Of a stretch of DNA of 48,147 nt, positions 1,393 to 47,053 are shown one piece after another (the stretch's first letter is position 1; the number at the start of each line of letters is the position of its first letter). Made by a program: the position numbers and the translations under genes. The notes beneath the pieces were generated by a model. It made no database searches, was not told where the DNA came from, and saw only the letters and a list, made by a program, of their open reading frames with translations. This stretch comes from a phage: sequence record PV636260.1; one strand, given 5' to 3'.

Positions 1393-2040
1393 TTATTCGA
1401 AGTTGGTGATTGATTGAGATTGTACAGGCTTCGCGCTCGTTGCTTCAACCTGTTTTTTCTGTTCCGGTTGTGCCGGGCGAATACCGCGAGCTTTACCGAT
1501 CTCAAACTTAGCCTTAAGTGCGTTGTAGTGATCCTGAATGATTGACTTGCTTGCCGTGTCCGTCTGTCGGTAAGCGTTAGCCCATACCTCTTTCAGTGAT
1601 TCGATATCTTCACACGCATCAAGTTCTTTCTTCCAGTCCTTGACAGATTTTACTGCAAGCTGAGCATCGTCATCACTCTGGCTAATCCCCAGCGCTGCGG
1701 CTAATGAGTAACGTCGAGCATACGTCATTGCGGAACCTACGCCTTGCGGATCGCGCTTTGCAATCGGCATCATCATGAAGAATTTGGCCCACTGCCCGGA
1801 TTTGTGAATAAGCATCGTTTCAAGATGGAAAGTTGTTTCAGTGCTGGTATCCAGCATTGATTGCAGGATCATAATATCGTTATCTGTTAGTGCTGGGCTT
1901 ACTGCCGCCATCATTGCATCAAGAGTTGCATATGAGTTTTTCAGGTGATTGTTTTTAGCGTCCTTCTTTGCTTTCGCGAATTTGTTGCGAGCATTGAACA
2001 GTGCAGGAAGGATTTCGTTTGTTTCTGGTGATAATTGCAT
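1393..2040 (-). CDS. erf: Erf-like single-strand annealing recombination protein
   Basis: Start moved to internal ATG at 2040 with RBS CAGGAGAAG; sequence character of ERF-family annealing proteins; sits between ssb and exonuclease. Confidence 0.7.
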   Translation of the reverse strand: MQLSPETNEILPALFNARNKFAKAKKDAKNNHLKNSYATLDAMMAAVSPALTDNDIMILQSMLDTSTETTFHLETMLIHKSGQWAKFFMMMPIAKRDPQGVGSAMTYARRYSLAAALGISQSDDDAQLAVKSVKDWKKELDACEDIESLKEVWANAYRQTDTASKSIIQDHYNALKAKFEIGKARGIRPAQPEQKKQVEATSAKPVQSQSITNFE

Positions 2041-2114
2041 ATTAACTTCTCCTGATTGGTGTATGAGGTGCATTATAACACCTCATTAATTATTTGTTTA
2101 GCTATTTGTGCCGT

Positions 2115-3179
2115 TTACTTATTTTGGTAACGCACCCATGATGGCGTTTCAAGTTCGATCTCGCTTGCGTCGCCAGCGTACCCAGGCCAAATATCCATTT
2201 CAGAGCAAGCCTTGTAAGTGTGGACTACGCTAATGTACTGGTTACGACCGATCCTGATTTGCTCCATAGTCATACGGTAAGCCAGTGCGATATAAGGCTC
2301 TTTTTTCTCCTGCGCAAGCAATCTAACTACGATCGGGATATCTTCAGGGAAGTTGCCTTCAAAAGCGCCAGCCTGGATTGCGCGTCGTAGCAGATCATGC
2401 TGCAAGGCCATTTTCAGATAATACCCGTGATTATATGCAAGGCGCGGGAACTCCAACGGATTTGCGCTCATCGTTGTTTTGAAGTCGGTGATAATCAGTG
2501 CTTCCGGGAAAATAACGTCTTCGAATACCGGATCTCCATTCTCATCATAACCAGTCAGCACACGACCTGGTACATTCTCTTTGTAGTCCAGATGGTCAAG
2601 TCTAACCTTAACCTTTACGCCGGATATCTCACCGAAGATTGAGATCTCACGCTGCGCAGTTTCGCTATTGATGCACGCTTCATGATCGGGATTTTGCTCA
2701 AGAATGGCCCTCATCTTCATACAGGCATCATATTTATCAGCGTCAACCAGTTGCTTTCCTTCAGCGCGCGCCTCAGCTTCAGCAATCAGTTCAATAAGAT
2801 ATTGAACATTGAGATCTTCACCGCAATCAACCATCATTTTGATGAGGTCAGGGTACTGCTTACCGGATGTACCTTTCAGGCCAAAAGATTTTAATTTTGC
2901 TGCCAGTGCCGTTTGCGAAGTAATAAGATCTTTAAACTCTGACGGAGCAGGACAACGCGCATACGTTGCAGTAAACAGATCTCGACTCTCAAAGTTAGTG
3001 TGCGACTGAGTACCGAACTCCAGCGCTTTCGTTGTCTCATTCTTCTTGAATCGCCAGTTAGCTGGGCAAGTTTGATAAATTTCTGCAAGGCTCGATCCGC
3101 TTACATACTCTGCCGCCCAACCTTCGTTGCTATGATACTCGTCATTAGAAAGCTGACTTGATGTGAATACCTGGAACAT
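2115..3179 (-). CDS. recombination exonuclease, PD-(D/E)XK (YqaJ/lambda-Exo-like)
   Basis: RBS AAGGAG; motif ITDFKTT and surrounding acidic residues typical of YqaJ-type nucleases; adjacent to erf and ssb. Confidence 0.7.
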   Translation of the reverse strand: MFQVFTSSQLSNDEYHSNEGWAAEYVSGSSLAEIYQTCPANWRFKKNETTKALEFGTQSHTNFESRDLFTATYARCPAPSEFKDLITSQTALAAKLKSFGLKGTSGKQYPDLIKMMVDCGEDLNVQYLIELIAEAEARAEGKQLVDADKYDACMKMRAILEQNPDHEACINSETAQREISIFGEISGVKVKVRLDHLDYKENVPGRVLTGYDENGDPVFEDVIFPEALIITDFKTTMSANPLEFPRLAYNHGYYLKMALQHDLLRRAIQAGAFEGNFPEDIPIVVRLLAQEKKEPYIALAYRMTMEQIRIGRNQYISVVHTYKACSEMDIWPGYAGDASEIELETPSWVRYQNK

Positions 3180-18328: not shown

Positions 18329-18348
18329 ATAGCACTTTTTGTTAAAGC
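18329..18348 (+). promoter_or_regulatory. copy of the repeated element (ATAGCACTTTTTGTTAAAGC), plus-oriented
   Basis: Sequence match; lies between decoration gene stop and capsid terminator. Confidence 0.4.
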
Positions 18349-25020: not shown

Positions 25021-25035
25021 AAATCAATCCTCTTT

Positions 25036-25057
25036 GTTTAACATTTAGTGCTATTTT
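25036..25057 (-). promoter_or_regulatory. copy of the repeated element upstream of TerS
   Basis: Minus strand ATAGCACTAAATGTTAAAC directly upstream of the RBS. Confidence 0.45.
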
Positions 25058-25073
25058 ACCATATTGCAGGCAT

Positions 25074-25096: not shown

Positions 25097-25104
25097 AGTA
25101 TTTA

Positions 25105-25332: not shown

Positions 25333-25333
25333 G

Positions 25334-26603: not shown

Positions 26604-26809
26604 GCCTCTTCTCCCTCATCTTCGATCGGTGTAAAAAACTGAGTGTTCACTGCCGGGTTGTAATAAACCCCGTCATCATAGTCGCTTTCTTTCACTTCAA
26701 TGAAAACGTCGCAACCGTCATGCATGAAATCACCGTTATCAGTATGAACGAGTTCGAATACTTCAGAAGTTTTATTGCAAGTGAAAAACTTATCAGTTGA
26801 CACCATCAT
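26600..26809 (-). CDS. hypothetical small acidic protein
   Basis: ORF with upstream element and hairpin; Asp/Glu-rich. Confidence 0.5.
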   Translation of the reverse strand: MMVSTDKFFTCNKTSEVFELVHTDNGDFMHDGCDVFIEVKESDYDDGVYYNPAVNTQFFTPIEDEGEEA

Positions 26810-26837
26810 TTCTATTTTCTCTCTTCGTTGTCGATGA

Positions 26838-26887
26838 GGTGACTATATCAAATCACCCCACCGACGTTTTAGCAATTAGTGCTATTT
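26838..26887 (-). promoter_or_regulatory. repeated element (ATAGCACTAATTGCTAAAAC) plus hairpin with -10-like TATAGT
   Basis: Stop codon TAG of the kinase gene lies inside the element; hairpin GGTGA-N10-TCACC. Confidence 0.55.
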
Positions 26888-27454
26888 GTTGATGAACGTA
26901 GCGGCTATGTGCTGAGCGGTAATTTCAGGATGACCCTCAACAGAGAAGAAATCACATTCCTGATAACCGTTAACCCCGATCATATCGTCCAGGTAGATAT
27001 AATCGCGACTGTCGTTATCGAAGTTGCAACCGTTGCGATGTATGCGGCATAGCTTGACCTTGATATCGCCTTCAATCATTTGCAAGATCTCGTCTTTGAA
27101 TCCCCCGTCAGTAAATACCGAAAGTGAGTGCGACTCTTTCACCTTGCTTTCCGCTCGCATACCGAAGAATCGATTTCCGAACTGCGGCTTGATGACTTCC
27201 TCGCTAATCCAGATCATAAACTGGCGCGGGCTTTTACCGTTCAGGATTGACGCTGGCTCTTCTTTGTAACGACGGTCCTCATACAAGAACATGAAATACT
27301 CGTAGTTAGTTTCACCCAGGATTGCCCGAGCAATCTCAAACATTGGTGCTTTGAAGCTGCGCAAAGCTACATGATCGTAAGTGTCAGCCAGGATGCATCC
27401 GATAGTGTCCTTGCCTGCTCCAGGAGCGCCGTTTAAAATGATAGCTGTTTTCAT
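26882..27454 (-). CDS. P-loop nucleotide kinase (dNMP kinase / PNK kinase-like)
   Basis: N-terminal Walker A ILNGAPGAGKDT. Confidence 0.65.
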   Translation of the reverse strand: MKTAIILNGAPGAGKDTIGCILADTYDHVALRSFKAPMFEIARAILGETNYEYFMFLYEDRRYKEEPASILNGKSPRQFMIWISEEVIKPQFGNRFFGMRAESKVKESHSLSVFTDGGFKDEILQMIEGDIKVKLCRIHRNGCNFDNDSRDYIYLDDMIGVNGYQECDFFSVEGHPEITAQHIAATFINK

Positions 27455-27455
27455 A

Positions 27456-27566
27456 TCAGTATCTCCCTAAAAATAATTTTGCCATATTGATAATAGTGTG
27501 ATTGATGATTAGCAGGATGATAACCGTCAATACCGGATGTGCTGCAATAAATTCGTATAGGTTCAT
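27456..27566 (-). CDS. 36-aa hydrophobic peptide between phosphatase and kinase (not in ORF track)
   Basis: ATGA overlap with phosphatase stop, TGA then 1 nt before the kinase ATG; RBS GGGGTAGAG; MNLYEFIAAHPVLTVIILLIINHTIINMAKLFLGRY. Confidence 0.4.
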   Translation of the reverse strand: MNLYEFIAAHPVLTVIILLIINHTIINMAKLFLGRY

Positions 27567-28096
27567 TTCTCTACCCCGTGCGATTTTAAATGATCGTGAA
27601 CGTTATCGCCATAGTCAACTACAGCATATGTGGTTATTCCAAGCGACCGGAATAATGGAATAATTTGCGGTGAATCATCCCAAGCCGCGAGGATGTTTTC
27701 AATACCGATAGCTCGCACCGCTTCCTCTTTCATCACTGTGTCTTTCCGGTTGTCGGTGTGCGGTCGCATGACTAAGTAATCATATCGCGCACCGTGATGC
27801 TTAAGCCATAACTCAGATGCGTAACGAACCTCATCACTTCGCCCGGTTAAAACTATTACGTGATACCCAGCGGCAAACATAGAGTTCATCACCTCAATCG
27901 TGCTCTGGATGGGGTTATCAAATATTGCGGCTCGATTAAACTCAGACCAGCTTTCAGTCAAGTGCAAATCCTTTTTTGGCAACAGGTGAATGCGCTTTGA
28001 TCCGTCACTCAGTGTTCCGTCAAAGTCAAAGATTGCGACGCGGCGCGGACCGAGAAACAGGTTGATAGTTTGACCCCAAATTGTAATTTTATCCAT
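27563..28096 (-). CDS. HAD-superfamily phosphatase (PNK 3'-phosphatase-like)
   Basis: Motif I FDFDGTL near N-terminus; later VLTGR and Asp-rich motifs. Confidence 0.7.
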   Translation of the reverse strand: MDKITIWGQTINLFLGPRRVAIFDFDGTLSDGSKRIHLLPKKDLHLTESWSEFNRAAIFDNPIQSTIEVMNSMFAAGYHVIVLTGRSDEVRYASELWLKHHGARYDYLVMRPHTDNRKDTVMKEEAVRAIGIENILAAWDDSPQIIPLFRSLGITTYAVVDYGDNVHDHLKSHGVEK

Positions 28097-28132
28097 GATT
28101 TATTCCTCTGATCGGTTGTTTAACTCAACGAA

Positions 28133-28181
28133 GGGCACTATATCAAATGCCCTTGAGCAAGTTTTAGCAATTCGTGCTATT
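28133..28181 (-). promoter_or_regulatory. repeated element (ATAGCACGAATTGCTAAAAC) plus hairpin with TATAGT
   Basis: Hairpin GGGCA-N10-TGCCC; element abuts the stop codon of 28180..28626. Confidence 0.55.
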
Positions 28182-28626
28182 ACCAGTAATCTAACTCGCG
28201 TCCAACCCAGGCGTCAAAGTCACTTTGGCAGAATGTGCCGCTATAATTTTCCATCATTTCATCGATCAGGAAGTTGGCTGGCTCTCCGATGCTATAGAAG
28301 TATAAATCAGCAGCGTTACGCGCCCAGCGCCCGGCATCTTTCTTGCTCATCTTCCAGTATTTAATTGCAATCTTCTTGAATGCGCGAACTACGCGCTTGC
28401 GGATCTTGATATGCTTGTATACCGCATTGCAGCCGTAAGCCATATATTCATTGTTGCCAAGATTCTGCATGATGTACGGATTAACGTCTTTTGACGTAAT
28501 CATCAGTTCGCCATCTCCGCGACGCGCATAATAAATGCTTGCTGTCATGTAGTGACCTTTGAACATTCCAATGCCGTACAGGGTATGTTCATCGTTAGGT
28601 GTATCAATGCAAATCAAATGTTTCAT
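28180..28626 (-). CDS. hypothetical protein
   Basis: Start moved to ATG 28626 with RBS GAGGGAA. Confidence 0.5.
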   Translation of the reverse strand: MKHLICIDTPNDEHTLYGIGMFKGHYMTASIYYARRGDGELMITSKDVNPYIMQNLGNNEYMAYGCNAVYKHIKIRKRVVRAFKKIAIKYWKMSKKDAGRWARNAADLYFYSIGEPANFLIDEMMENYSGTFCQSDFDAWVGRELDYW

Positions 28627-28651
28627 GAGTGTTCCCTCGTTCGTTGGTGTG

Positions 28652-28700
28652 GGGGAATCATAGCGCATTCCCCTTGATAGGTTTTAGCAATTCGTGCTAT
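28652..28700 (-). promoter_or_regulatory. repeated element plus hairpin with TATGAT
   Basis: ATAGCACGAATTGCTAAAAC; hairpin GGGGAAT-N8-ATTCCCC. Confidence 0.55.
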
Positions 28701-28902
28701 TCGTTTTAATAGTGATGCAAAAATAATTTTTTAAGCACGTCACCACGCGCGCTGAATCGACTTGTGGGAGCATTAAAATTTCGTGGACCAATTGCACTGC
28801 CGACACCTCAGATTTGTAGTAGTGTGCGATTCTGGAGGTATTTGGGCGCATTCCTTCCACTGCGTCACGCGCTGCATCTTCTGCTGTCATGATAGTAGCC
28901 AT
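28684..28902 (-). CDS. hypothetical protein (uncertain; 3' end reads through the repeated element)
   Basis: ORF track only; weak RBS. Confidence 0.3.
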   Translation of the reverse strand: MATIMTAEDAARDAVEGMRPNTSRIAHYYKSEVSAVQLVHEILMLPQVDSARVVTCLKNYFCITIKTNSTNC

Positions 28903-29010
28903 AAAACACCCTTAAGAGATAATGTCAGGACCAGGAGGCAGAATAGCAACTCCTGAAATGATGGCGGCTCGTTATTCCAGTTAGAAAAGTCTGGCATAGT
29001 GTTTTCTCCA

Positions 29011-29040
29011 AAAGAAAGGGGAACCGCTCAGAGTCGATTC
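29011..29040 (-). terminator. terminator-like hairpin downstream of 29051..29689
   Basis: GGGGAATCGACTCTGAGCGGTTCCCC then TTTCTTTT on minus strand. Confidence 0.5.
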
Positions 29041-29050
29041 CCCGTTAAAA

Positions 29051-30163: not shown

Positions 30164-30173
30164 AGCTAATTCC

Positions 30174-30251
30174 TTATTTGCAAAATGGGCAGGTTGATTT
30201 ATTTCCGCTGCCACCATGATTAGGGCAGCACAATTTCTCAATTGGCGTCAT
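30174..30251 (-). CDS. 25-aa Cys-rich mini-protein (not in ORF track)
   Basis: RBS GAGGAA 7 nt before ATG; MTPIEKLCCPNHGGSGNKSTCPFCK; stop TAA overlaps the next RBS. Confidence 0.35.
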   Translation of the reverse strand: MTPIEKLCCPNHGGSGNKSTCPFCK

Positions 30252-30285
30252 AACTGATTCCTCTGATTGGTTGCCATGCTTCAAT

Positions 30286-30335
30286 AAGGCCACTATATCA
30301 AATGGCCTTGCGGAAGGTTTAGCAATTCGTGCTAT
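30286..30335 (-). promoter_or_regulatory. repeated element plus hairpin with TATAGT
   Basis: ATAGCACGAATTGCTAAAC; hairpin AAGGCCA-N10-TGGCCTT. Confidence 0.55.
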
Positions 30336-30481
30336 CGTTTAACACACATTGTTTTTACTTCGTATCCGAACGGCTTGTTTTCTGCAATTACTTCACGAGC
30401 TTTGTTACATGATTGCTGACTCTCCATGTATACGTGATCCGGCCCGGTGCTCATCAGTATAATCAATACCCATGCAGCCAT
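30332..30481 (-). CDS. 49-aa hypothetical protein with hydrophobic N-terminus (not in ORF track)
   Basis: TAATG coupling to upstream gene, RBS GGTGA; stop TAG is the TAG of the repeated element. Confidence 0.4.
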   Translation of the reverse strand: MAAWVLIILMSTGPDHVYMESQQSCNKAREVIAENKPFGYEVKTMCVKR

Positions 30482-30987
30482 TATTTCACCTCGTAGCGTA
30501 CAAGCGTTCCGCGCTTAATGCTGATTTCACCTGATACCGTATTGTTCTTGAAGCTGCCGTGATGCAATAGAAGCGTGATGATATCGTCGTGCACCTCAAT
30601 AGTTTTTGGTATCGCGGTAATCTCAACCCAAGAATCGCTGCTAATCTGGACACCTTTTAGCTTTGCGCTAAGTGGCATGTTCTCGATCTGAGAGCACTGT
30701 ATAGACGGCTTGATTTCTGGCTTTGCAGCTTTGAATATCGAGCCTTCAATCTTCCAGCTATAATACAAGCTGTAAGCATTATGACCGTCACTCATAATGT
30801 AGTGGTAGTCCTTATTTGGTGAGTTTTCTTTATTCACTTCATTATGTCTGGCAATAAACCACTCCAGATTAAGCTGCGACACCTTATCAGTGGCCCATGT
30901 ACCCTTATCTTTATCGGTGAACGTAATTTCACCACATCCCATGCTGATAAATTTGATCGGGAATTTAACGTCTTCTAATTTCAACAT
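30481..30987 (-). CDS. hypothetical protein
   Basis: ORF preceded by element, hairpin and RBS AAGAGGAAA. Confidence 0.55.
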   Translation of the reverse strand: MLKLEDVKFPIKFISMGCGEITFTDKDKGTWATDKVSQLNLEWFIARHNEVNKENSPNKDYHYIMSDGHNAYSLYYSWKIEGSIFKAAKPEIKPSIQCSQIENMPLSAKLKGVQISSDSWVEITAIPKTIEVHDDIITLLLHHGSFKNNTVSGEISIKRGTLVRYEVK

Positions 30988-31013
30988 AATGATTTCCTCT
31001 TAGTGGTTGATGT

Positions 31014-31061
31014 GGGATTGTACCAGTCAGGACGAATCCCCTTTTAACAATTCGTGCTTAG
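31014..31061 (-). promoter_or_regulatory. repeated element (AGCACGAATTGTTAAAAG) plus hairpin with TACAAT
   Basis: Sequence match and position. Confidence 0.5.
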
Positions 31062-31552
31062 TAGACTAGCTCGCACTCAATAGAGAACGGTTCGGAGTCG
31101 CGATGGAAGAAGCAAAGTGACTCTTTATTCATCCCACCCCAAAAACCTACAGCATTGAGTTGTTCATTGCCAACGTAAGCTAGGGTGCTGGTAATTTCCT
31201 CAAAGTCAACAATAACCGGGAACGTGCGATTCTCATAACCAGGGCGCATAGGATACCCGCCATTGTTGAGAAGTCGAACCTTGCGCGGCTTGATGTTTGC
31301 CTGGACTTCCCATTTAAAAAAGAACATCGTTCCGTCCTTCTCGTTGAAGTCAGCCGGGCCAAATGCCGGACTAACCGATAGGCCGTAATCAAGATCGTAC
31401 ACGCCAGCTTTAACCAGGTCATCGACCTTTACGCGGTAGCCACCGCCGCCCAAGCTATCATCGCACTTCACCGCGTCAACGATAATCGGGTCTGATTCCA
31501 GGTCGCGAGTAAAGCCTTTGTAACCGCCAGTGCACAGTAATTTAATTTTCAT
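31058..31552 (-). CDS. hypothetical protein (start revised to ATG 31552)
   Basis: RBS GAGGACGAGAG; the longer track ORF would run through the regulatory element. Confidence 0.5.
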   Translation of the reverse strand: MKIKLLCTGGYKGFTRDLESDPIIVDAVKCDDSLGGGGYRVKVDDLVKAGVYDLDYGLSVSPAFGPADFNEKDGTMFFFKWEVQANIKPRKVRLLNNGGYPMRPGYENRTFPVIVDFEEITSTLAYVGNEQLNAVGFWGGMNKESLCFFHRDSEPFSIECELVY

Positions 31553-31577
31553 GCTCTCGTCCTCATTCGTTGTCGAT

Positions 31578-31629
31578 GTGGTTACTATATCGCAACCACA
31601 TGATCGCGTTTTAACAAAAAGTGCTATTT
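31578..31629 (-). promoter_or_regulatory. repeated element (ATAGCACTTTTTGTTAAAAC) plus hairpin with TATAGT
   Basis: Hairpin GTGGTT-N10-AACCAC. Confidence 0.55.
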
Positions 31630-31863
31630 CATCAGAGTGAAGCAACGAATCTCGTTTGGCTTAAAGATGAATGTCTGTATGCCATTGATAAGACCTGCGT
31701 GAATAACTTCGAACCCAAACTCTTTCTTTACATACCTTACAAATTCGAAGGTTGTACGATAATCACCATTGAATCCAAACGTCTCGGGGTTAAGCTGGAA
31801 TGCTTCGCCTGGGTTTAGTCGCATCAAGATACCTTTCAGGGCGTCATGCTTAATTTTGCTCAT
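31624..31863 (-). CDS. hypothetical protein
   Basis: ORF in operon. Confidence 0.5.
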   Translation of the reverse strand: MSKIKHDALKGILMRLNPGEAFQLNPETFGFNGDYRTTFEFVRYVKKEFGFEVIHAGLINGIQTFIFKPNEIRCFTLMK

Positions 31864-32871: not shown

Positions 32872-33221
32872 TGGAGATGACCACCAGGCGAACTGGGTAA
32901 CACTAAATCCCCCCTCTCACAATCATTGCAATCTAAGCAACAAATCAACCAACTGTTGCACACCATGCAACAATCACATTTCATCATTCGAGATCAATCA
33001 TGATCGTAATTATTCCAGATATTCCAGTATTGATGGAATAATGAGCAATTATTGGAATAGCATTTTTTGCCACACATCAGCCCTGCCGATCGGGTATGAT
33101 TCATCTCATCAACCAATCAGAGGAGATTTGCAGTGAAATTAATCTGGTCGCTATTCGACGGTTCCGGCCTTGCAGGTCATGAACTTAACTTTGCGCGATG
33201 TCTTCCGTTTTGAGGTGATGA

Positions 33222-33749
33222 ATGATTTGGCACGATTACTTTACATACAATCCGAAAACTGGAAAGCTGTTCTGGAAAGAAAGAAAAGATATACACAAAT
33301 CAAGAGTTAAACAATGGAATGCTCGCAATGCTGGTAATGAGGTTGGCTCTTTGGGTAGTGGTGGCAGATATTTAGAAACTACACTTACTGTAAACGGAAA
33401 ACGTTATAACCTGAAAGTTCATAGAATATGCTATGAAATGCACTATGGCCCAATACCTGAAGGAAAGGCGGTTGATCACGTAAATCACATCACGACTGAT
33501 AACAGAGCAATAAACTTTGAGTTAAAAGATCATAAAGGAAATATGCGAAACACATCAAAACAGAAAAACAATACAAGTGGCATACCAGGTGTGCATAAAA
33601 ATAAACATGGCAAATGGGTTGTAAGGATTGGAGGGGGAAAGCGAGGGAGGAGGATTTACATAGGGTGCTTCTCAAGTTTTGATGATGCGATTTCCGCAAA
33701 GAAAGCAGCTGAATATGAACATGGATACCATGAAAACCACGGCAAATAG
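33222..33749 (+). CDS. HNH endonuclease with C-terminal AP2 DNA-binding domain
   Basis: HNH core VDHVNHITTDNRAINFEL; AP2-like SGIPGVHKNKHGKWVVRI...IGCFSSFDDAISAKKAAEYEHG; RBS GAGGTGA. Confidence 0.7.
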   Translation: MIWHDYFTYNPKTGKLFWKERKDIHKSRVKQWNARNAGNEVGSLGSGGRYLETTLTVNGKRYNLKVHRICYEMHYGPIPEGKAVDHVNHITTDNRAINFELKDHKGNMRNTSKQKNNTSGIPGVHKNKHGKWVVRIGGGKRGRRIYIGCFSSFDDAISAKKAAEYEHGYHENHGK

Positions 33750-33765
33750 CACTTTTTGTTAAAAC
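33746..33765 (+). promoter_or_regulatory. repeated element (ATAGCACTTTTTGTTAAAAC) abutting the HNH stop codon
   Basis: The TAG of ATAGCAC is the HNH stop codon; -10-like TAATTA about 20 bp downstream. Confidence 0.5.
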
Positions 33766-33822
33766 TCGATCGGTGCGATTTGGCATAATTACCTCATCGA
33801 AACGAGATTGAGGAAAAACAAA

Positions 33823-34008
33823 ATGGCACGTCGCATCACTAAAGAACTTAAAGTTCTGAACAAAGAAAACGTAGTTAAAATCCTGGTTATTTGGGGATAC
33901 AGCGAAGAGTCAGCAAAGCAGAAGGTAGAAGCAGGTTACGACCTGGCTATCAAGGCAATGCCTAACGACGACGCAAAAGGCATTGCAAACTATGTAGCGT
34001 TCTTTTAA
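33823..34008 (+). CDS. hypothetical protein
   Basis: ATG 33823 after GAGGAAAAA. Confidence 0.5.
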   Translation: MARRITKELKVLNKENVVKILVIWGYSEESAKQKVEAGYDLAIKAMPNDDAKGIANYVAFF

Positions 34009-34209: not shown

Positions 34210-34259
34210 ATAGCACTTTTTGCTAAACGAAAATGCGGGAGGGCTGCTATAGTTCTCCC
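34210..34259 (+). promoter_or_regulatory. repeated element (ATAGCACTTTTTGCTAAAC) plus hairpin with TATAGT
   Basis: Hairpin GGGAG-N13-CTCCC with TATAGT in the loop, then RBS GAGGTAA. Confidence 0.55.
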
Positions 34260-34284
34260 ATCAACAGAAAACGAGGTAATCACC

Positions 34285-34656
34285 ATGTTTAAACAATTCG
34301 TAGACCTGGACTTCTCAGCAAGCACAGCAATCCAGACTGACGAGAAAGAGAACGTAGCGATCGAGAACATTGCGCGAAAGATTTACAACAAGCAAGAGAA
34401 GGCAGTGAGAGCCGCTCTAAGCGCTTATTACGGCGTAAGTGATGCAATGGAGTGCGTGAACCGAGTAACCCGCGCAGTGGACCATTTAGGCGTGTCTCGC
34501 TTCATTGATAATGATACTGGAGAGACAATAATCCAGCTTAACAACCCATCAATGCGGACCGAGCTTGGCAATATTGCATTATGGGGCGTGGCTAACTACT
34601 CAATCACTGTAAACTCCTGCATTGCGGATCGTGTTAAGGAGGCATTGTATGAGTGA
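34285..34656 (+). CDS. hypothetical protein
   Basis: ORF with RBS. Confidence 0.55.
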   Translation: MFKQFVDLDFSASTAIQTDEKENVAIENIARKIYNKQEKAVRAALSAYYGVSDAMECVNRVTRAVDHLGVSRFIDNDTGETIIQLNNPSMRTELGNIALWGVANYSITVNSCIADRVKEALYE

Positions 34657-35187: not shown

Positions 35188-35327
35188 TTTATATTCACAC
35201 TTTCTATACTGGCAAATTTAACAACGTAAAAAATGTTCGCGTTTACGATAGCCACCAAAAAGCAATGATGCAGAAAGTAGTTCTAGGCGGCACAACCAAA
35301 GAGTGCAAAGTAATTTCTGAGTACTGA
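35184..35327 (+). CDS. 47-aa hypothetical protein (not in ORF track)
   Basis: ATGA coupling with upstream stop; stop TGA immediately before the repeated element. Confidence 0.4.
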   Translation: MIYIHTFYTGKFNNVKNVRVYDSHQKAMMQKVVLGGTTKECKVISEY

Positions 35328-35378
35328 TAGCACGAATAGCTAAAGACAATCAGCAAGGGAGTAAGGTATATTACTCCC
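35327..35378 (+). promoter_or_regulatory. repeated element (ATAGCACGAATAGCTAAAG) plus hairpin with TATATT
   Basis: Hairpin GGGAGTA-N8-TACTCCC. Confidence 0.5.
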
Positions 35379-35404
35379 ACACCAAACAAACAAAGGAATT
35401 AAAA

Positions 35405-35629
35405 ATGAGCATTAAAGTTGAGAATATCATCAAGCACCTGAACGCGAAAGGCCGTGTAGTTATCAAAATGGATAAGTCTTCCGGTTTTATTTCAATGACG
35501 GTAACTAAGACTCGTAACGGTAATAACGTTATCGGCAGCACGCCAGGCTCTCGCTTAGTAAATGCAACAGATGCTGATGTGCGCGCTACGCTTGAGGCTA
35601 ACTCAATTTACATTAATTCATGGAGTTAA
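35405..35629 (+). CDS. hypothetical protein
   Basis: RBS AAAGGAA. Confidence 0.55.
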   Translation: MSIKVENIIKHLNAKGRVVIKMDKSSGFISMTVTKTRNGNNVIGSTPGSRLVNATDADVRATLEANSIYINSWS

Positions 35630-35842: not shown

Positions 35843-35892
35843 ATAGCACGATTTGTTAATATTGCCGTAAGGTCATTTGATAAAGTGACCTT
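35843..35892 (+). promoter_or_regulatory. repeated element (ATAGCACGATTTGTTAATA) plus hairpin with TAAAGT
   Basis: Hairpin AAGGTCA-N10-TGACCTT. Confidence 0.5.
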
Positions 35893-35922
35893 ATTCAAGA
35901 TAACCAATCAGGAGTTAATGCG

Positions 35923-36339
35923 ATGAAATCAATCAAACTGAAATGTACTTACGCCGATAAAATCACAGGATTTGAAATTAACAACCTATACAAAGGTCGA
36001 GAGCGTTTCGATGGCACTCGCGAAGTAAAATTAAAATGCGGCAAGTATTTAAAACTTGAAAAGCATGATGAATTACAGATTCACGGATCTGATGAAATCT
36101 TCTTCGCGAAGTTCACTGAGTTGAAAACAAAGACGCTCAAGTGCACCGGGCTTGACCATCGCAACCCAATGAAAAAATCATTCAAAGTTGGCAAGCGTTA
36201 CCAGGTTGAAAGCGGTCGCGCTCTCGGTGGAGTAGCTGGTTACATCTTTGATGAAGATGGTTGTCGCTGGACCTTATTTCGCGAAGAGGTTGGTTTTAGT
36301 ATCGCAGACGGCACAAACTTTGAGGCCAAATACTTATAA
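35923..36339 (+). CDS. hypothetical protein
   Basis: RBS CAGGAG. Confidence 0.55.
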   Translation: MKSIKLKCTYADKITGFEINNLYKGRERFDGTREVKLKCGKYLKLEKHDELQIHGSDEIFFAKFTELKTKTLKCTGLDHRNPMKKSFKVGKRYQVESGRALGGVAGYIFDEDGCRWTLFREEVGFSIADGTNFEAKYL

Positions 36340-36342: not shown

Positions 36343-36394
36343 ATAGCACTTTTTGCAAAACGCGTGTACCATTGGCGGTGTATCATTCACACCG
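36343..36394 (+). promoter_or_regulatory. repeated element (ATAGCACTTTTTGCAAAAC) plus hairpin with TATCAT
   Basis: Followed by RBS AAAGGAG and start at 36416. Confidence 0.5.
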
Positions 36395-36415
36395 TCAACA
36401 AAGGAGTTTATTGTG

Positions 36416-39740: not shown

Positions 39741-39917
39741 TTAATCTATCGCAATAAATTCCAGGTAGTGACCGTTCAGAGGCGCTTGGATTGCTGAACC
39801 TCGCCCGTCGTAAATCTCAAATAATCCCCCACAGAAATCATAACCAACACTATAGATCTGATTTACACGGAATGGAAGTGTCTTGGAGTCATTTCGGATG
39901 CACTTAACTAGCTTCAT
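39741..39917 (-). CDS. 58-aa hypothetical protein (not in ORF track)
   Basis: RBS AAAGAGG before ATG 39917; preceded by repeated element and hairpin. Confidence 0.45.
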   Translation of the reverse strand: MKLVKCIRNDSKTLPFRVNQIYSVGYDFCGGLFEIYDGRGSAIQAPLNGHYLEFIAID

Positions 39918-39950
39918 GATATAGCCTCTTTGTTTCGATGTGGTTACTAT

Positions 39951-39990
39951 GCCCGAATCCCTTCGGGCGTTTTTATCAATTAGTGCGATC
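39951..39990 (-). promoter_or_regulatory. variant repeated element (GCACTAATTGATAAAAAC) plus hairpin
   Basis: Hairpin GCCCGAA-N4-TTCGGGC followed by TAGTAA. Confidence 0.45.
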
Positions 39991-41714: not shown

Positions 41715-41901
41715 TGGTTAGTTTCTCCACGCTTTCAATAAAACACTCAACATCTTTGACTGAGCAGAGGTAATAAGCCATTTTAAGGAAGTTCATAGCA
41801 ATATCCCAATCAAAGTTACCGCCTTTCTTGTCAGTGATATGAACAGCCATTTTTGCGGACTGTTGAGCGATATTGAAAAAGTTTGCGTTAATGCGTGCCA
41901 T
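41692..41901 (-). CDS. hypothetical protein (start revised to ATG 41901)
   Basis: RBS GAGGAATCAGAAG. Confidence 0.5.
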   Translation of the reverse strand: MARINANFFNIAQQSAKMAVHITDKKGGNFDWDIAMNFLKMAYYLCSVKDVECFIESVEKLTNADKKTR

Positions 41902-41938
41902 CTTCTGATTCCTCATTTCGTTTCTATGAAATAACTAT

Positions 41939-41977
41939 ACCCGACTTTCGCCGGGTATTTTTAGCAATTAGTGCTGT
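41939..41977 (-). promoter_or_regulatory. repeated element (AGCACTAATTGCTAAAAAT) plus hairpin, TATAGT after the hairpin
   Basis: Hairpin ACCCG-N8-CGGGT. Confidence 0.5.
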
Positions 41978-42219: not shown

Positions 42220-42929
42220 ACTTTCCTCACTTTTGCGCGATTGTTTTTCACCGAAGGGCAAATGCTTGTGATTGGGATATAGTGAGTTTGCTGCGTCTCA
42301 CCCTCTTTAAGTTCGCGCATAATGAAAATTACCGAACCTTTGTTGTTACCGTCAACCGCCTTTCCTGTTTCACCGGATATGAACGCCAGGCGACCTGATC
42401 GTGCATATTCATTGCCGTCAATATCCTCAGTCAAGTCAGCTTCAATCCAGATGATTTCAGCCGCGTGCTGTCGAGCCTCAGTAAACCACGCCGTCGAGTT
42501 ATCGGCAGGTAAAAGAATATCGATCTGGTTGTTGTGCTCCATTTGCTCAATCGCTTTCTTGACGAATATATCAGGTCGACTGTAAGGAGGATTTAACCAT
42601 ACGTGCTTATTTTTACCCCACCAACGTTTTAAGCAGTTTGTTTCCTGGGAATAAAACTTCTCGCAAACTTTATTTTCTTCGCTTGCCGCAGCGTCGAGAT
42701 CATATTTTTCGTAGCGACCCTCAAGGTATGCGATAACCTCGCGTGGGGTTGACCATAAATCACGAACGGCGTCAGGTGTATTGGTTCCCTTGTATCTACG
42801 GCCTGAAATCTCTTTGCAGGTCGGCGTTTTCAGTGCCTGATAATAACAGCCTGATGCTATTGCTTCACGAGTGAATGAGCACCCAGTATCTGCAAAGTCT
42901 ATGGTTTCGATATCATTAAAGTCTTTCAT
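42216..42929 (-). CDS. dam: DNA N6-adenine methyltransferase (Dam-like)
   Basis: Catalytic motif NPPY (WLNPPYS); RBS GAGAGGAA. Confidence 0.8.
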   Translation of the reverse strand: MKDFNDIETIDFADTGCSFTREAIASGCYYQALKTPTCKEISGRRYKGTNTPDAVRDLWSTPREVIAYLEGRYEKYDLDAAASEENKVCEKFYSQETNCLKRWWGKNKHVWLNPPYSRPDIFVKKAIEQMEHNNQIDILLPADNSTAWFTEARQHAAEIIWIEADLTEDIDGNEYARSGRLAFISGETGKAVDGNNKGSVIFIMRELKEGETQQTHYIPITSICPSVKNNRAKVRKV

Positions 42930-42961
42930 TTTTATTCCTCTCGTTTTGGTGAGGTAATAAT

Positions 42962-43002
42962 GCCAGATTCCATTCCGGCATGTTTAGCAAAAAGTGCTAT
43001 TT
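42962..43002 (-). promoter_or_regulatory. repeated element (ATAGCACTTTTTGCTAAAC) plus hairpin upstream of dam
   Basis: TAG stop of the VRR-NUC gene lies within the element. Confidence 0.5.
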
Positions 43003-43413
43003 CATCATTTCGTATATTGCGATCTTGAATTGCTCAAATCCGTATGCAACGGCAGAGAATCCACCGCGATCCCGAACCTTTTTGAGAAACTCCCTTTGCT
43101 TATCGCTGACTGGTGACGCCTTTCCCTTGCCGGACTTATTAACCCGTTTGAGTTCGATAGCTGCGAACGGGTAACGTGAGTTTACACCAATCAGGATAAC
43201 GAAATCTGAAACACCTTTAAGTAATCCAGCCTGCTCATCCCTGAGTGCTGAAGTGATTGTTTTTTCACCTTCATTTACAGTGTGCCAAAATAGAAGGTGT
43301 GGAAAGTTGTATTTCAGCCAGGAAACGCAATCTACCTGATGAGCGTCCTCCTTTCTAGTGTCGCTAGGATCTCGATCGTAAAACTCTAAGTAATCGCCTT
43401 TATCTGTAATCAT
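42997..43413 (-). CDS. VRR-NUC domain nuclease
   Basis: Motifs VSDFVIL and AIELKR typical of VRR-NUC; ATGA coupling with helicase. Confidence 0.65.
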   Translation of the reverse strand: MITDKGDYLEFYDRDPSDTRKEDAHQVDCVSWLKYNFPHLLFWHTVNEGEKTITSALRDEQAGLLKGVSDFVILIGVNSRYPFAAIELKRVNKSGKGKASPVSDKQREFLKKVRDRGGFSAVAYGFEQFKIAIYEMMK

Positions 43414-45422
43414 TCCGGGATATCCTCCATACCGAAGTCTTTGCGTGAGATAATATCTTCTTTCTTCTGGTTGCGACGATGAGTTACGCGTACCGGGTGA
43501 GCGATATGATGTGCGTACTGCACGATCTTGATGGCGTTCTTCATTCCGATAAAGTAGCGACGCATTTTAGGATCTGACACATGAGGAAGTACACCTTTAG
43601 TTTTCCATAGCGTACCGCAAATCTTAGAGTCAGACTCGGGGAAGAATTTTTCATACGCCTTGAACTCATCACCATCGTCGTTAATCAGCATGTATTTGTA
43701 TATTATGCCTTTCTGGTTTTTGGTTAGCGTAACTTCAAAATTCTTTACCTCGTACCAGTCATTCTTAGTGTACGCCTTACCGGACAACTTCAGGTTCGGA
43801 TCGACAAGTGAGACATCACAACAACGACAGACTCGGGCCACAACGTCATTCTCTGCACCGCATCCTTTAACAAGGATTTTTCCGGTGCGCTCGTCAACCT
43901 GGTCCTCACAAATCTGAGAAGTCCAGAAATGATCGCAACGTTCACCATCAATGACATTAACGCATCGTCGAGCATAGAAGCTATTTACGCAACCGCATTT
44001 CGGACATTTTTTCGGATCTTTGCCATTTTCAAAACGCTTTTGGAATTGCGCCTGCTCAAGTATAGGATCGAAATAAAGCTGCCCCAACTCATCCATCGTG
44101 CCTGCGAAATCCCATACAAGATGATCTTGCTTAACCATTCCTTCAGCAACCTGCCAGGATTTAAGAAGTCGCATACCCCTACCCAAAAGCTGAATCAGCA
44201 AGGTAAGAGATCCTATCTTGCGAAGTATTACACTAAAATCCCAATTTGGAACGTTAACGCCAGTAGTTAGCGCCATGACTTGAAAGGTGTATTTAATTTT
44301 CCCGGCCCTCACATCATCAAGAATCTTCTTGCGCGTTTTAGTGTCTGTGTCGCCAGTAATAATTGCATATGTGCTTCCTGGTGGTAGTGCCGCCGCCGCC
44401 TCTTTGCAGTGACGCACACCAGCGCATGTAATCAGAACTGCGTTACGCTCTTCAGCCTTTTTGGCAACCATTTGCATGATTCGCTGAGTAAGAGATTTAT
44501 CATGAAGGATCTCATCTTCCATTGCCTTCATATCTTTCTCTGTAAAGTCCTGTACACCATCCTCGCTTGATGCCTTAAATTTATCAAGATCGTAGTGAAC
44601 TCCGTCCGTAGAACCGAATATAGTCGGAACGACTGAGCCAAACTCAATAAGGTAGTTGGTGTCTATATCAGTAACGCGCTCACGCCAGAATCCTAACGCC
44701 TTTGGATTCTCAACAAGAATAGGAACTACGCCCCTAAATTCAGATCCGGTCATACCAAATATTCTAAGGTCGTGACCGTGAACCTGTTTACAGCGTCGCA
44801 TCATTTCCATGATTACGATCGTGTACTGACTGCGCTTAGTTCCAAGAAGAGGCTTTCCATCATTACCAATCAGAGGAGTATCACCGTCCATGATAATTTT
44901 CCCTTTCTCTCCCCGCATCTGTTCCATCGTTTCCTTGCCTTCGATAGCTTGCGCAAGGTCTTCCCAATCCACCTGGTGACATTCATCGATCCCGATTACG
45001 TGAGGGACAAAATCAGATAACTCATTATTTAGACCATTTGCAACAGTTCCCTCAGATCCAACCACGATAGGGAAGTAGCAAGACTTGATTCCAAGTGACG
45101 CTGAGAATATAGAGTTAGTCACCCCGAAATTGTCGATCTCTTCACTATCCTGATCGACAATCTCACCCTGGCGTGCCAGAACAAGCATTTTCAAGCCCAT
45201 TTTTTGACACTGCTTTGCAACCATAGCAAAAATGATGGTCTTACCCGCAGATACTGACGCTTTAACAAAGAATGGATGCTCGTAATTTGACAGGCGTTTC
45301 GCGATCTCGGCATAAGCAACAACCTGGTACGGATAAGGAACAACCTCACCAACAGTAAATCGCTCCTGAGTTCGCTTTATGTAGTCCTCGCCAAGTAATG
45401 CAATCTGTTTTTTAATGTTCAT
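43410..45422 (-). CDS. SF2 DNA helicase (DEAD/DEAH-like) with C-terminal Cys-rich zinc-binding region
   Basis: Walker A VSAGKT, DEAH-like GIDECHQ, C-terminal CPKCGC...C...C cluster; start ATG 45422 (GTG 45428 possible). Confidence 0.8.
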   Translation of the reverse strand: MNIKKQIALLGEDYIKRTQERFTVGEVVPYPYQVVAYAEIAKRLSNYEHPFFVKASVSAGKTIIFAMVAKQCQKMGLKMLVLARQGEIVDQDSEEIDNFGVTNSIFSASLGIKSCYFPIVVGSEGTVANGLNNELSDFVPHVIGIDECHQVDWEDLAQAIEGKETMEQMRGEKGKIIMDGDTPLIGNDGKPLLGTKRSQYTIVIMEMMRRCKQVHGHDLRIFGMTGSEFRGVVPILVENPKALGFWRERVTDIDTNYLIEFGSVVPTIFGSTDGVHYDLDKFKASSEDGVQDFTEKDMKAMEDEILHDKSLTQRIMQMVAKKAEERNAVLITCAGVRHCKEAAAALPPGSTYAIITGDTDTKTRKKILDDVRAGKIKYTFQVMALTTGVNVPNWDFSVILRKIGSLTLLIQLLGRGMRLLKSWQVAEGMVKQDHLVWDFAGTMDELGQLYFDPILEQAQFQKRFENGKDPKKCPKCGCVNSFYARRCVNVIDGERCDHFWTSQICEDQVDERTGKILVKGCGAENDVVARVCRCCDVSLVDPNLKLSGKAYTKNDWYEVKNFEVTLTKNQKGIIYKYMLINDDGDEFKAYEKFFPESDSKICGTLWKTKGVLPHVSDPKMRRYFIGMKNAIKIVQYAHHIAHPVRVTHRRNQKKEDIISRKDFGMEDIPE

Positions 45423-45441
45423 TGTCACGGCTATTAATCCT

Positions 45442-45470
45442 TTGAATCGTTGTAACGTTTACGCTATAAT
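45442..45470 (+). promoter_or_regulatory. sigma70-type promoter for the HTH regulator gene
   Basis: TTGAAT - 17 bp - TATAAT; flanked by inverted repeat AACGTTTAC / GTAAACGTT. Confidence 0.6.
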
Positions 45471-45488
45471 ACACGGCATAAAGTAAAC

Positions 45489-45510
45489 GTTTTTAGCAAA
45501 AAGTGCTATA
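45489..45510 (-). promoter_or_regulatory. repeated element (ATAGCACTTTTTGCTAAAAAC) upstream of the helicase
   Basis: Its -10-like TATTAT is the complement of the plus-strand TATAAT region. Confidence 0.5.
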
Positions 45511-45521: not shown

Positions 45522-45974
45522 ATGAGTATTCAACGTATCGCAGAGTCAACTGGTGAAATCGATAAACGTCACATCAATGGTAACAACGGAACACGGCGCG
45601 GTAAAGATAAAAAGCCTCGACAGCGTTGCGGGTTCTATATTCATAAAGAAGAAACACGCGCCGGACTGCGAGCGCGACTTGATGCTCTTATCGAATATTA
45701 CGGCGGCCCTGCGGCCTGCGCAAAGGCTCTAAAAGTTAGCAATCAGACGGTGCAAGGCTGGAAAGATCGAAATATGATTTCATGGCAAGGCGCTGAAGCT
45801 GCGCATCGCGCTTACCGCCGACAGGGGTGCAAAGGATTTCGTGCCGCATGGTTGCGATTCGACCTGAAGTTTGACGGTAACGGCAAGTGCCTTGAGAAGC
45901 GATGCAAGAACAAGAAATTTATGCGCGTCGTGAAGAAGGAAGATATCGGAACTACCAATAGCATTTTTAGTTAA
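45522..45974 (+). CDS. putative DNA-binding regulator (Cro/YdaS-like HTH)
   Basis: RBS AGGAGA; HTH-like AACAKALKVSNQTVQGWKDRNMIS; Cys/His and basic residues. Confidence 0.5.
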   Translation: MSIQRIAESTGEIDKRHINGNNGTRRGKDKKPRQRCGFYIHKEETRAGLRARLDALIEYYGGPAACAKALKVSNQTVQGWKDRNMISWQGAEAAHRAYRRQGCKGFRAAWLRFDLKFDGNGKCLEKRCKNKKFMRVVKKEDIGTTNSIFS

Positions 45975-45977
45975 AAC
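45958..45977 (+). promoter_or_regulatory. variant repeated element (ATAGCATTTTTAGTTAAAAC) overlapping the regulator stop
   Basis: Sequence match. Confidence 0.4.
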
Positions 45978-45982
45978 AAACG

Positions 45983-46019
45983 ACGCGTAGCGGGTTAACA
46001 TCCTTATACGCGTTTTTTA
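45983..46019 (+). terminator. terminator/attenuator-like hairpin upstream of primase
   Basis: ACGCGTA-N17-TACGCGT followed by TTTTTTATTTT. Confidence 0.45.
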
Positions 46020-46035
46020 TTTTGGAGATCTGGAA

Positions 46036-46971
46036 GTGAACGAAGAATTTATGATGTTTCAGAAAGAGGACGTTTTGCCGTACATGAAGGGGTTATGGCG
46101 CGAGGCTTTCCAATCAATCTGCGGATTGCCGAATGATGTTTTTAATAAGAAGCACCAACCTTGCCCCAACTGCGGCGGTAAAGACCGCTTTCGCTGGACC
46201 GATAACTTAAACACTCCTGGCGACGGCGGCGCGATCTGCAACTCATGCGGGAACGACTCCGGGATCGGGTGGCTAATGAAATTAACTGGTATGCCGTACA
46301 GTGAATGTATAAACATCCTGGGGAGATTTCTCGGCAAGGTTCCGCAGGAATACATTGTTAAGGCAAACAAGAAAGCACGCAGGACTCCGGTATCTGGTGT
46401 CAATGTCATGATGGCAGATCATGAAGCGGTGATGAAAGTCATGGAGCGTACAGAGAAGCGCGTAAACACACCTCTAAGCATGTTTGAATCTCTACCTACT
46501 GAATCATTCGACGTTGGCGTAAAACGTCGCGAGGATGGCGGCGAGAGCGTATTTCACACCATACCATGTCAACTTGTACACGAGGACGGTCTTGATGATG
46601 AGTTTTGTAATATTTTGATTATTGATGAGGAGGGTAGGGAGTCATTTTACGCTAAGAAATACACAAGTTGCTCGGTTGCCGTGACTGGTAAAACAGAAAA
46701 AGCGATCTACTTATGCCTTAATTGGATTGATGCTCAGCATATTGCATTTCACACAAAGCAAGAGGTATGGGCCTGCTTCACTCCTGAGAATCTGGAAATG
46801 GTTGCATACAGATATAAAGGGGATCGAGAAGTAAGGGTTGCGTGCGAACCTTCAGACAAGGAGACTTTATACATGGCAGACGACCGACAATTAAAAATAA
46901 TCATCCCAAATCCTGGAGGATACCGCTCAGGAATGCAAGCCAAGTTATTCTCAGCAAGTGACCTACTCTGA
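46036..46971 (+). CDS. DNA primase with N-terminal zinc-binding domain
   Basis: CPNCGG...CNSCGN zinc ribbon; acidic IIDEEG motif; next to the helicase. Confidence 0.7.
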   Translation: MNEEFMMFQKEDVLPYMKGLWREAFQSICGLPNDVFNKKHQPCPNCGGKDRFRWTDNLNTPGDGGAICNSCGNDSGIGWLMKLTGMPYSECINILGRFLGKVPQEYIVKANKKARRTPVSGVNVMMADHEAVMKVMERTEKRVNTPLSMFESLPTESFDVGVKRREDGGESVFHTIPCQLVHEDGLDDEFCNILIIDEEGRESFYAKKYTSCSVAVTGKTEKAIYLCLNWIDAQHIAFHTKQEVWACFTPENLEMVAYRYKGDREVRVACEPSDKETLYMADDRQLKIIIPNPGGYRSGMQAKLFSASDLL

Positions 46972-47010: not shown

Positions 47011-47053
47011 ATAGCACAATGATAAAATCAGCGTTTAGCAATTCGTGCTATTT
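47011..47053. promoter_or_regulatory. head-to-head pair of repeated elements upstream of the tail fiber gene
   Basis: ATAGCACAATGATAAAATC (plus) and the complement of ATAGCACGAATTGCTAAAC; then RBS AAGGAG and ATG 47072. Confidence 0.5.

Follow-up and report, generated by a model that had tools for sequence, protein, structure and literature searches.

Stop codons embedded in a repeated, operator-like element at the edges of putative transcription modules in a T1-like phage

Why do the stop codons of so many genes of one phage fall within, or directly against, copies of the same short element, and does this arrangement make of each gene a portable cassette? The question is raised by positions 28155-28185 of PV636260.1, a stretch of 48,147 nucleotides (nt) that was analysed as a whole and is termed the window below. 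This is the DNA of a T1-like siphovirus (Drexlerviridae, Tunavirus) that is collinear with phage T1 and whose region 26000-34000 is 88-93% identical to Escherichia phages AV106, DELF2, ADB-2 and others; T1-like phages frequently turn up as contaminants in laboratories and industry, and are candidates for therapy. An earlier note on this DNA had described compact units, running from a stop codon through the element, a hairpin and a ribosome-binding site (RBS) to the next start codon, as modular gene cassettes joined at a common linker that might favour the shuffling of early genes between related phages. Our analysis indicates that the element is primarily a transcription signal, with an occasional role as a recombination linker, so that the linker idea is partly supported, i.e. 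shown in a few events and not as the dominant mechanism. The best explanation, which we regard as reasonably probable, is that the element forms the edge of a compact transcription module and is read as an operator, with occasional service as recombination homology a by-product.

The window contains 21 occurrences of the heptamer ATAGCAC where 5.1 would be expected, and none of 100 shuffles reached 21. It belongs to a longer motif, (a)aATAGCAC-NNN-TTG(C/T)TAAA(a), of which the window holds about 25 copies (with up to three mismatches) and phage T1 the same set. The element is the direct repeat (DR) already published for T1-like phages: a paper on phage TLS describes a 21-nt direct repeat, aaATAGCACnnnTTGnTAAAA, in 21 copies located approximately 76 nt 5' of start codons and oriented with transcription, which was noted in T1, Rtp and Rogue1 too and was divided by its central triplet into subtypes AAA, TTT and GAA (PMC11447400). 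Consensus, copy number (about 20), orientation and start-codon distance are all shared with the window element, and position frequencies derived from 80 related loci agree with the published consensus, the invariant positions being AGCA and T.G.TAA. Units of the same consensus and geometry are also found in Webervirus, Rogunavirinae and Braunvirinae; when viral contigs were scanned for the DR, multi-copy matches lay mostly on contigs of about 45-53 kb, a length that would suit T1-like genomes, with a few on contigs of 28-29 kb, and single matches resembled chance. The accessible text of the TLS paper leaves the function of the repeat undecided between stoperator, enhancer site and UP element, and carries no mention of a dyad, a -10 sequence at 22 nt, a hairpin, embedded stop codons or a link to gene content (PMC11447400). 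New here is the surrounding architecture, i.e. a dyad that would be centred near position -42, a fixed distance to a -10-like hexamer, a hairpin that appears to act at the RNA level and embedded stops. The dyad makes of the DR a pseudo-palindrome, TAGCA-N5-TGCTA, whose half-sites are separated by one helical turn (10 bp).

At the locus that raised the question the unit is read on the minus strand (28155-28185 region: ...ctggTAATAGCACGAATTGCTAAAacttgctcAAGGGCAtttgaTATAGTGCCCTTcg...cagaGGAataaatcATG). Its DR, ATAGCACGAATTGCTAAA, occupies 28163..28180 and contains the TAGCA-N5-TGCTA dyad; the TAA stop codon of the upstream gene, a homologue of T1 orf65, lies at 28180..28182, so that its final A doubles as the opening A of the DR, and is in frame with the TAG of the DR to give a tandem stop. 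The hairpin (28123..28158; core AAGGGCA / TGCCCTT, folding free energy about -16 kcal/mol, z=-4.1) follows, and its loop and 3' arm contain a -10-like TATAGT (28137..28142) that is preceded by TGn and placed 22 nt after TTGCTA. A Shine-Dalgarno sequence, GAGGA (28104-28108), and an ATG (28094-28096) then open the polynucleotide kinase gene (27563..28096).

Throughout the window, 17 DR copies have the stop codon of an upstream open reading frame (ORF) between -6 and +16 of the DR (units below are on the minus strand unless marked plus). Six of these stops are the TAG of ATAGCAC itself, closing the ORF 26882..27454, which resembles a deoxynucleoside monophosphate kinase (unit 26807..26885), the ORFs 30332..30481 (unit 30249..30335) and 31624..31863 (unit 31550..31627), the HNH gene 33222..33749 (unit 33746..33825, plus), the VRR-NUC gene 42997..43413 (unit 42927..43000, 5' of a dam-like methylase gene) and an ORF that ends at 10642. 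Two share the first A of the DR, namely the TAA at 28180 and a TGA at 35325-35327 (unit 35327..35407, plus, in which the -10 lies at 24 nt). Three are TAA codons that directly abut the DR: 34207-34209 (unit 34210..34287, plus), 35840-35842 (unit 35843..35925, plus) and the stop at 2115, where the unit 2038..2114, with the degenerate DR ACGGCACAAATAGCTAAA and a TATAAT at 21 nt, separates the PDDEXK exonuclease and ERF genes. One stop lies at -6 (unit 36343..36415, plus, 5' of a helicase gene). The remainder comprise the copy at 31060, in which the variant TAAGCAC (TAAGCACGAATTGTTAAA, unit 30985..31060) supplies the stop of ORF 31058..31552; two copies, at 39989 and 41977, in which the TAG is mutated (to ATCGCAC in unit 39915..39989 and to ACAGCAC in unit 41899..41977) and a TAA in the central triplet serves instead; and two in which the stop is the TAA of TTGCTAA, at 28684 (unit 28624..28700, 5' of the Orf65 homologue; ORF 28684..28902) and, as a degenerate TAGTTAA, at 45974 (plus).

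The seven stop codons listed in the earlier note (26882, 28180, 30332, 33749, 34209, 35327 and 42997) are thus all correctly placed, and its gene labels (kinase-like, HNH, VRR-NUC) hold; the stop at 35327, however, is a TGA and not a TAA. Beyond that list, 31624 and 10642 add stops at the TAG, and 35842 and 2115 add adjoining TAA codons. Across the 80 related loci an upstream stop falls in the same -6 to +16 zone in 237 of 282 distinct units, 135 of which use the TAG. The embedding is therefore systematic and non-random, and yet it is as expected from genome compaction and the motif's own TAG and TAA: stops come to lie in the DR because there is no spare intergenic DNA, and because the DR by itself, through these two codons, closes two of the three reading frames.

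The order of parts described earlier, i.e. stop, element, hairpin, RBS and start, is confirmed by the full set of units, with the addition of a -10-like hexamer in or beside the hairpin. Each unit runs from the stop codon through the DR, a variable hairpin, a -10-like TAnnnT, a C/A start context and the RBS to the ATG, and at approximately 75-85 nt this module constitutes the entire gap between two genes, with the DR as its 5' edge. The TAnnnT is located exactly 22 nt 3' of TTGCTA in 18 of 20 units, most commonly as TATAGT, and the TGn of an extended -10 precedes it in 11 of the 20; on its 3' side are six G+C-rich nucleotides, a CATC that provides the C/A start context, and, carrying a strong RBS, a leader of roughly 25 nt. 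Counted from where the DR begins, start codons are reached after 70-84 nt in 18 units, all of them co-oriented.

These units are not canonical sigma-70 promoters. A spacer of 22 nt exceeds the distance between -35 and -10 elements that region 4 of sigma-70 can reach; a scan with the -35/-10 consensus did not detect the DR units, and canonical promoters in the early region are not in excess (30 found against 26 expected). Standard promoter searches find almost none in the early regions of T1-like phages, and the TLS study reports only three canonical promoters (PMC11447400). Other assignments were considered and rejected: a -10 at 17 nt after TTGCTA (TTTGAT) is present in only four copies; TGcTAAAAC fails as an extended -10 since it has no T at -7; a sigma-54 promoter (TGGCAC-N5-TTGC) is excluded because the DR, TAGCAC-N3-TTGC, has AG in place of GG and is 2 bp short; and the DR shows no fit to the consensus sequences of IHF, CRP or LexA sites.

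We propose instead that the hexamer would act as the sigma-70 -10 of a promoter that has no -35, and that the DR may be the operator of a dimeric phage regulator, which would activate from about -42 and repress where its site overlaps a core promoter or 5' untranslated region. If transcription begins 7 nt after the hexamer, the DR dyad would be centred near -42. Activators at class II promoters bind at such positions, e.g. CRP at -41.5 and lambda cI at OR2, approximately -42 of PRM. On this model the DR units would resemble class II promoters in the dyad with 10-bp half-sites near -42 (given the presumed start), in the good or extended -10, and in the likely repression where the site overlaps a core promoter; they differ in that about 20 copies per 48-kb genome is far above what is typical for an operator, and in that only candidates can be named for the binding protein. 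Together, the dyad, the fixed -10, the RNA-level hairpin and the link to the regulators Pir and Orf65 considered below provide a concrete, testable model.

The same short sequence, present in 20-odd copies of 19-21 nt, would also constitute portable homology. To compare gene content between elements, the two divergent early arms were examined in eight Tunavirus relatives; each genome was cut at its DRs, and the pieces were clustered into a cassette map. The leftward arm reads [O][S][K] A A C D E F L and the rightward arm G [M|Q|-] [N|V|-] B(+B') H I J [P], such that the DR-bounded pieces O, K, S, B' and P come and go between genomes, with Q substituted for M and V for N. Cassettes change at DR boundaries in a few clear cases, and of 17 differences in gene content that set the window apart from its relatives, 10 have one or both ends in the DR zone, which makes up 3% of the sequence. 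No relatives were found that keep the same genes without the element at their boundary: the orthologous junctions examined retain the DR, at most in degenerate form, as do two degenerate copies checked by hand.

At two junctions the recombinant flanks have only the DR in common. At 31627 in the window, in the unit 31550..31627 where the O and K cassettes of relatives are missing, the upstream flank is that of the AV106 Z>O junction and the downstream flank that of K>A, and only the 19-21-nt DR is shared. At 34210..34287 the window does not have the additional DR-bounded cassette of 622 bp (B') found in phage ISF002, and the joint is inside the DR. Both are products that repeat-by-repeat recombination would be expected to leave. 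Such exchange might plausibly proceed via the phage's own recombination system, an ERF-family annealing protein (1393..2073) and a PDDEXK exonuclease (2115..3179, both minus strand), which could use such short homology; it would occasionally delete or insert whole DR-bounded cassettes, and after each such event the gene before the joint would still end in a stop codon and the gene behind it would still have a promoter. At the N>B junction the DR and the gene 5' of it are conserved, and the hairpin, leader and first gene differ among genomes. Were exchange of this kind real and frequent, it would explain the turnover of small early genes, many of which are likely to serve in anti-defence or host takeover, without damage to their neighbours.

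The closest known system is that of the PeSLs (promoter-early stem-loops), and the DR unit may be regarded as the same kind of element with a different promoter design. According to PMC4122927, which cites Arbiol et al. 2010, PeSLs are intergenic composites of promoter and stem-loop present in many copies among the small early genes of T4-like phages; they adjoin insertions, deletions and replacements between close relatives, cassette exchange between copies has been proposed, and excision of mini-circles was demonstrated experimentally. DR units likewise are short intergenic composites of a promoter-like sequence and a stem-loop (15 of 19 hairpins have z <= -2.9). PeSL promoters, however, are near-consensus with -35/N17/-10, whereas DR units have no -35 at 17 nt and a dyad that would lie near -42; the stem-loop of the DR unit encloses or abuts the -10; the phages are Drexlerviridae and not T4-like; and in place of observed excision circles DR exchange is proposed here from sequence junctions, the statistical excess being modest. 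Our literature search found no paper that applies the PeSL idea to T1-like phages, and if the exchange proposed here is correct the principle would extend beyond the T4-like phages. Lambdoid morons, genes with their own promoter and terminator, offer a second parallel. As with morons, single genes with their own promoter have been added between genes, e.g. the P cassette of phage IME18, but moron promoters are unrelated to one another, whereas DR cassettes all carry the same repeat, which is able to serve as a joint.

Much of what weighs against our reading concerns this recombinational part of it. Pooled over three genomes that are not independent, 22 of 41 DR junctions contained a breakpoint against 20 of 81 others, and when junctions were collapsed to families the figures became 12 of 23 against 10 of 28 (p=0.27). 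Linkage of homologous flanks was broken in 27% of DR pairs and 8% of controls (133 sequences), a difference of which the longer DR interval explains part. DR junctions are thus 2- to 3-fold more break-prone than others, an excess without statistical significance once duplicates are collapsed. Only 6 of 36 divergence change-points, i.e. homologous crossovers, are at a DR, and functional conservation of the DR alone would suffice to end alignments at its edges. Several events, moreover, were driven by HNH genes or used microhomology of 3-4 nt. The replacement of M by Q cannot be taken as a DR-by-DR swap: the HNH gene 33222-33749 has replaced a Dcm-like methylase gene of which approximately 17 codons of the 5' end remain (33133-33185, headed by the degenerate unit 33057..33135, plus), and phage Kalemo has the same HNH gene 5' of an intact methylase; the replacement is a homing-type insertion that removed most of the methylase gene. 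T1 also has HNH insertions, one of them exactly at the DR edge of the unit equivalent to 36343..36415. The IME18 P cassette lies just 5' of a terminator and, in comparison with the window, shows 3-4-nt microhomology at the DR edge, and the T1 Z>K junction is only partly explained as a simple deletion of O, since the upstream gene differs too and the DR triplet fits a different DR.

It is conceivable on these grounds that compaction is the whole explanation, the DR being purely a transcription signal and gene flux occurring at any boundary; we consider this a genuine possibility, but one less probable than not to be the full account. The absence of a significant de-duplicated excess, the location of most crossovers elsewhere, the HNH-driven and microhomology events and the 90 of 180 gap events that touch no DR all favour it. 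It does not readily accommodate the two junctions that share only the DR, the difference in broken linkage, or the finding that central triplets of orthologous DRs differ between genomes as if swapped; nor does it predict that 47% of homology breakpoints would be in units (9.6% of sequence) and 26% in the DR zone (3.2%), the latter an enrichment of approximately 8-fold. For the cassette proposal of the earlier note the balance is mixed: the compact punctuation stands, as does the coming and going of whole DR-bounded pieces among eight relatives, but no strong excess at DR junctions accompanies them, and shuffling through the element, to which the two DR-only junctions testify, receives no significant support at family level. 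The strongest version of the idea, a family-wide plug-and-play system in which one 19-21-nt operator is at once stop codon, regulatory address for Pir or Orf65 and homology for reshuffling of early genes by ERF and exonuclease, seems to us less probable than not. If it were true, any gene joined at a DR would at once be correctly terminated and regulated, and the units would be the siphovirus counterpart of T4 PeSLs, with an activator site in place of the -35 hexamer.

If the DR is an operator, what reads it? Reporter data identify T1 Orf23 (Pir) and Orf65 as transcription regulators: Pdam and Phol are activated by Pir, which represses PrecE and the promoter of its own gene, and Orf65 represses pir and activates Porf65, which does not respond to Pir (PMC6737242). 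On our reading of the T1 sequence the Pdam, Porf65 and Ppir fragments each contain a DR, those of Pdam and Porf65 consisting in essence of one DR unit; in the pir promoter an inverted copy separates the -10 from the RBS, and PrecE is a canonical TTGACT-17-TATAAT promoter that has no DR. In the window the pir homologue (T1 orf23; 45522..45974, plus) encodes a candidate DR-binding regulator with a weak match to a Cro-type helix-turn-helix, and its stop is the TAA of the degenerate TAGTTAA in the unit 45958..46038 (plus), 5' of a primase gene. The inverted, TTT-type DR that abuts the pir RBS is present in 80 of 80 related loci and is common to a divergent helicase promoter (window 45492-45521); read on its other strand, it belongs to the unit 45426..45509 of the helicase gene 43410..45428. 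The Pir proteins of the 80 relatives retrieved are all at least 51% identical and accompany the same DR.

The second candidate, the Orf65 homologue, is encoded by the very gene whose stop lies in the DR at 28180. It most likely starts at 28626 (28180..28626, minus), 74 nt 3' of the DR in its own unit, which gives the 148 amino acids found in most homologues, the first ATG being at 28668; an AlphaFold model with a predicted local distance difference test score (pLDDT) of 47 was too poor for use of the fold. Family-wide, 825 phage records contain a Pir homologue, compared with only 65 for Orf65. In the late region DRs occupy positions at which a bound protein would repress: one (18329..18346, plus) lies in the spacer of a minus-strand TTGACG-17-TATTAT promoter-like site (18325-18353 region), with a terminator hairpin directly after it, and another (47034..47051, minus) is 6 nt 3' of a canonical promoter, TTGCAA-17-TGaTAAAAT (47000-47028, plus), just before the RBS of a tail-fibre gene. 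The reporter effects, the invariable pir-DR linkage and these late-region positions suggest that a phage regulator is the most likely reader, with Pir as the family-wide candidate and Orf65 as an additional candidate in Tunavirus.

On the side of transcription, three difficulties attach to this proposal. Porf65 has a DR and yet is independent of Pir, and PrecE has no DR and yet is repressed by it; therefore a scheme of one DR and one regulator is too simple. Early promoters that depend on a phage activator pose a bootstrapping problem, although the TGn in about half of the units could give basal activity. The -42 geometry, finally, depends on the start assumed 7 nt 3' of the hexamer. Alternatively, the DR might be an enhancer, similar to an UP element or a displaced -35, that a host factor or the host's RNA polymerase reads directly. 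In favour of this, early genes need to be transcribed before any phage protein is made, the DR stays invariant between subfamilies, all of which infect Enterobacteriaceae, TTGCTA resembles a -35, and UP elements are among the suggestions of the TLS authors (PMC11447400). We nevertheless judge a host reader unlikely, as the 22-nt spacer is beyond reach of sigma-70 region 4, the left half (ATAGCAC) is not A/T-rich in the manner of UP elements, a dyad with half-sites 10 bp apart suits a dimeric regulator, DRs also occur inverted, or inside or 3' of core promoters, and phage regulators alter the activity of DR-bearing fragments (PMC6737242).

The hairpin that follows the DR varies in sequence between units while its pairing is kept. 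Over 19 units the mean z is -3.2, and orthologous families show 10 compensatory and 22 one-sided changes. No single register fits all units (best pairing 51%, against 34-49% in shifted registers), and two positional classes are apparent: in one the hairpin encloses the -10, and in the other it sits directly 5' of the -10, with a tight GNRA-type loop and a U-rich tail that doubles as -10. In the units at 39989, 41977 and 43000 the hairpin is tight and a U-rich -10 region comes after it; that of 39915..39989 is terminator-like and overlaps the first base of the -10, and that of 41899..41977 has a GNRA loop and overlaps its first bases. Of the two strands, the sense strand gives the more stable fold in 30 of 36 distinct units (mean difference -2.2 kcal/mol, p=1e-4), and this bias argues for a role of the hairpin in RNA read through from the upstream gene, where it might act as a weak terminator or as a stabiliser of the 3' end; transcripts from the unit's own predicted start would not include it. 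Against termination, most hairpins have no U tract, and terminator calling over 25000-37000 called no unit hairpin, their tails being CATCGAC or CACACC; for most of them the assignment as intrinsic terminators is thus rejected, although annotations of relatives label them as such.

Two further explanations involve the hairpin. The stoperators of mycobacteriophage L5 are asymmetric repressor sites that are not known to have an associated -10. They share with the DR the many intergenic copies of one short site, mostly oriented with transcription (L5 stoperators as cited in PMC11447400), and a repressor bound at co-oriented DRs could block elongation with the hairpin aiding termination, in keeping with the terminator labels in relatives and with the carrier or lysogen-like state reported for T1 (PMC6737242); such silencing is nonetheless improbable, because the fixed -10 at 22 nt, the C/A start context, the RBS and the reporter activity of DR fragments point to initiation and are not stoperator features, the DR is near-palindromic, and most hairpins have no U tract. 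Equally improbable is a purely RNA-level element, in which DR (folding as UAGCA/UGCUA, 5 bp) and hairpin would act jointly in polycistronic RNA through processing or protein binding: the sense-strand bias of the large hairpin, the G-C or G-U pairing kept by the only common right-half variant (C/T) and a DUF3850/ASCH 'RNA-binding protein' gene in the early region speak for it, but inverted DRs with the T variant would have an A-C mismatch, other variants are uncompensated, no known Rfam family matched in the window, a 5-bp stem is marginal, and the fixed -10 spacing would go unexplained.

Besides the copies at 18329..18346 and 47034..47051, several DR copies do not form units. The variant at 25037..25054 (minus) lies between an intrinsic terminator, with a -10-like box, and the RBS of the small terminase gene, and no -10 follows it. 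The copies at 8377-8394 and 14564-14581 have no downstream -10 either; one of them is between a terminator (with a -10-like box) and a tail-gene RBS, and the other is inverted and abuts a tail-gene RBS. A copy at 41628-41645, with a weak hairpin and a poor -10, is inside or at the start of a small ORF, and its T1 equivalent is in an unannotated gap of 195 nt. At 32852 a perfect DR copy is followed by a conserved stretch of 205 nt (to 33057) that contains neither a -10 nor a gene; the T1 record has its coordinate 1 at the equivalent of window 32971/32972, so that 32852-33057 may belong to the packaging start region.

Two observations concern other parts of the window. At 27569/27570, within the polynucleotide kinase gene, phages SA32RD, ADB-2, IME18 and LeonhardEuler have 78 additional in-frame bases. 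Between the cor-like and exonuclease genes, approximately 470 nt (3230-3700) are non-coding and comprise a core that is very AT-rich, with GTGTAACA/TGTTACAA repeats on its flanks, and then a canonical TTGACT-17-TATAAT promoter, an arrangement that may represent a replication origin or a control region.

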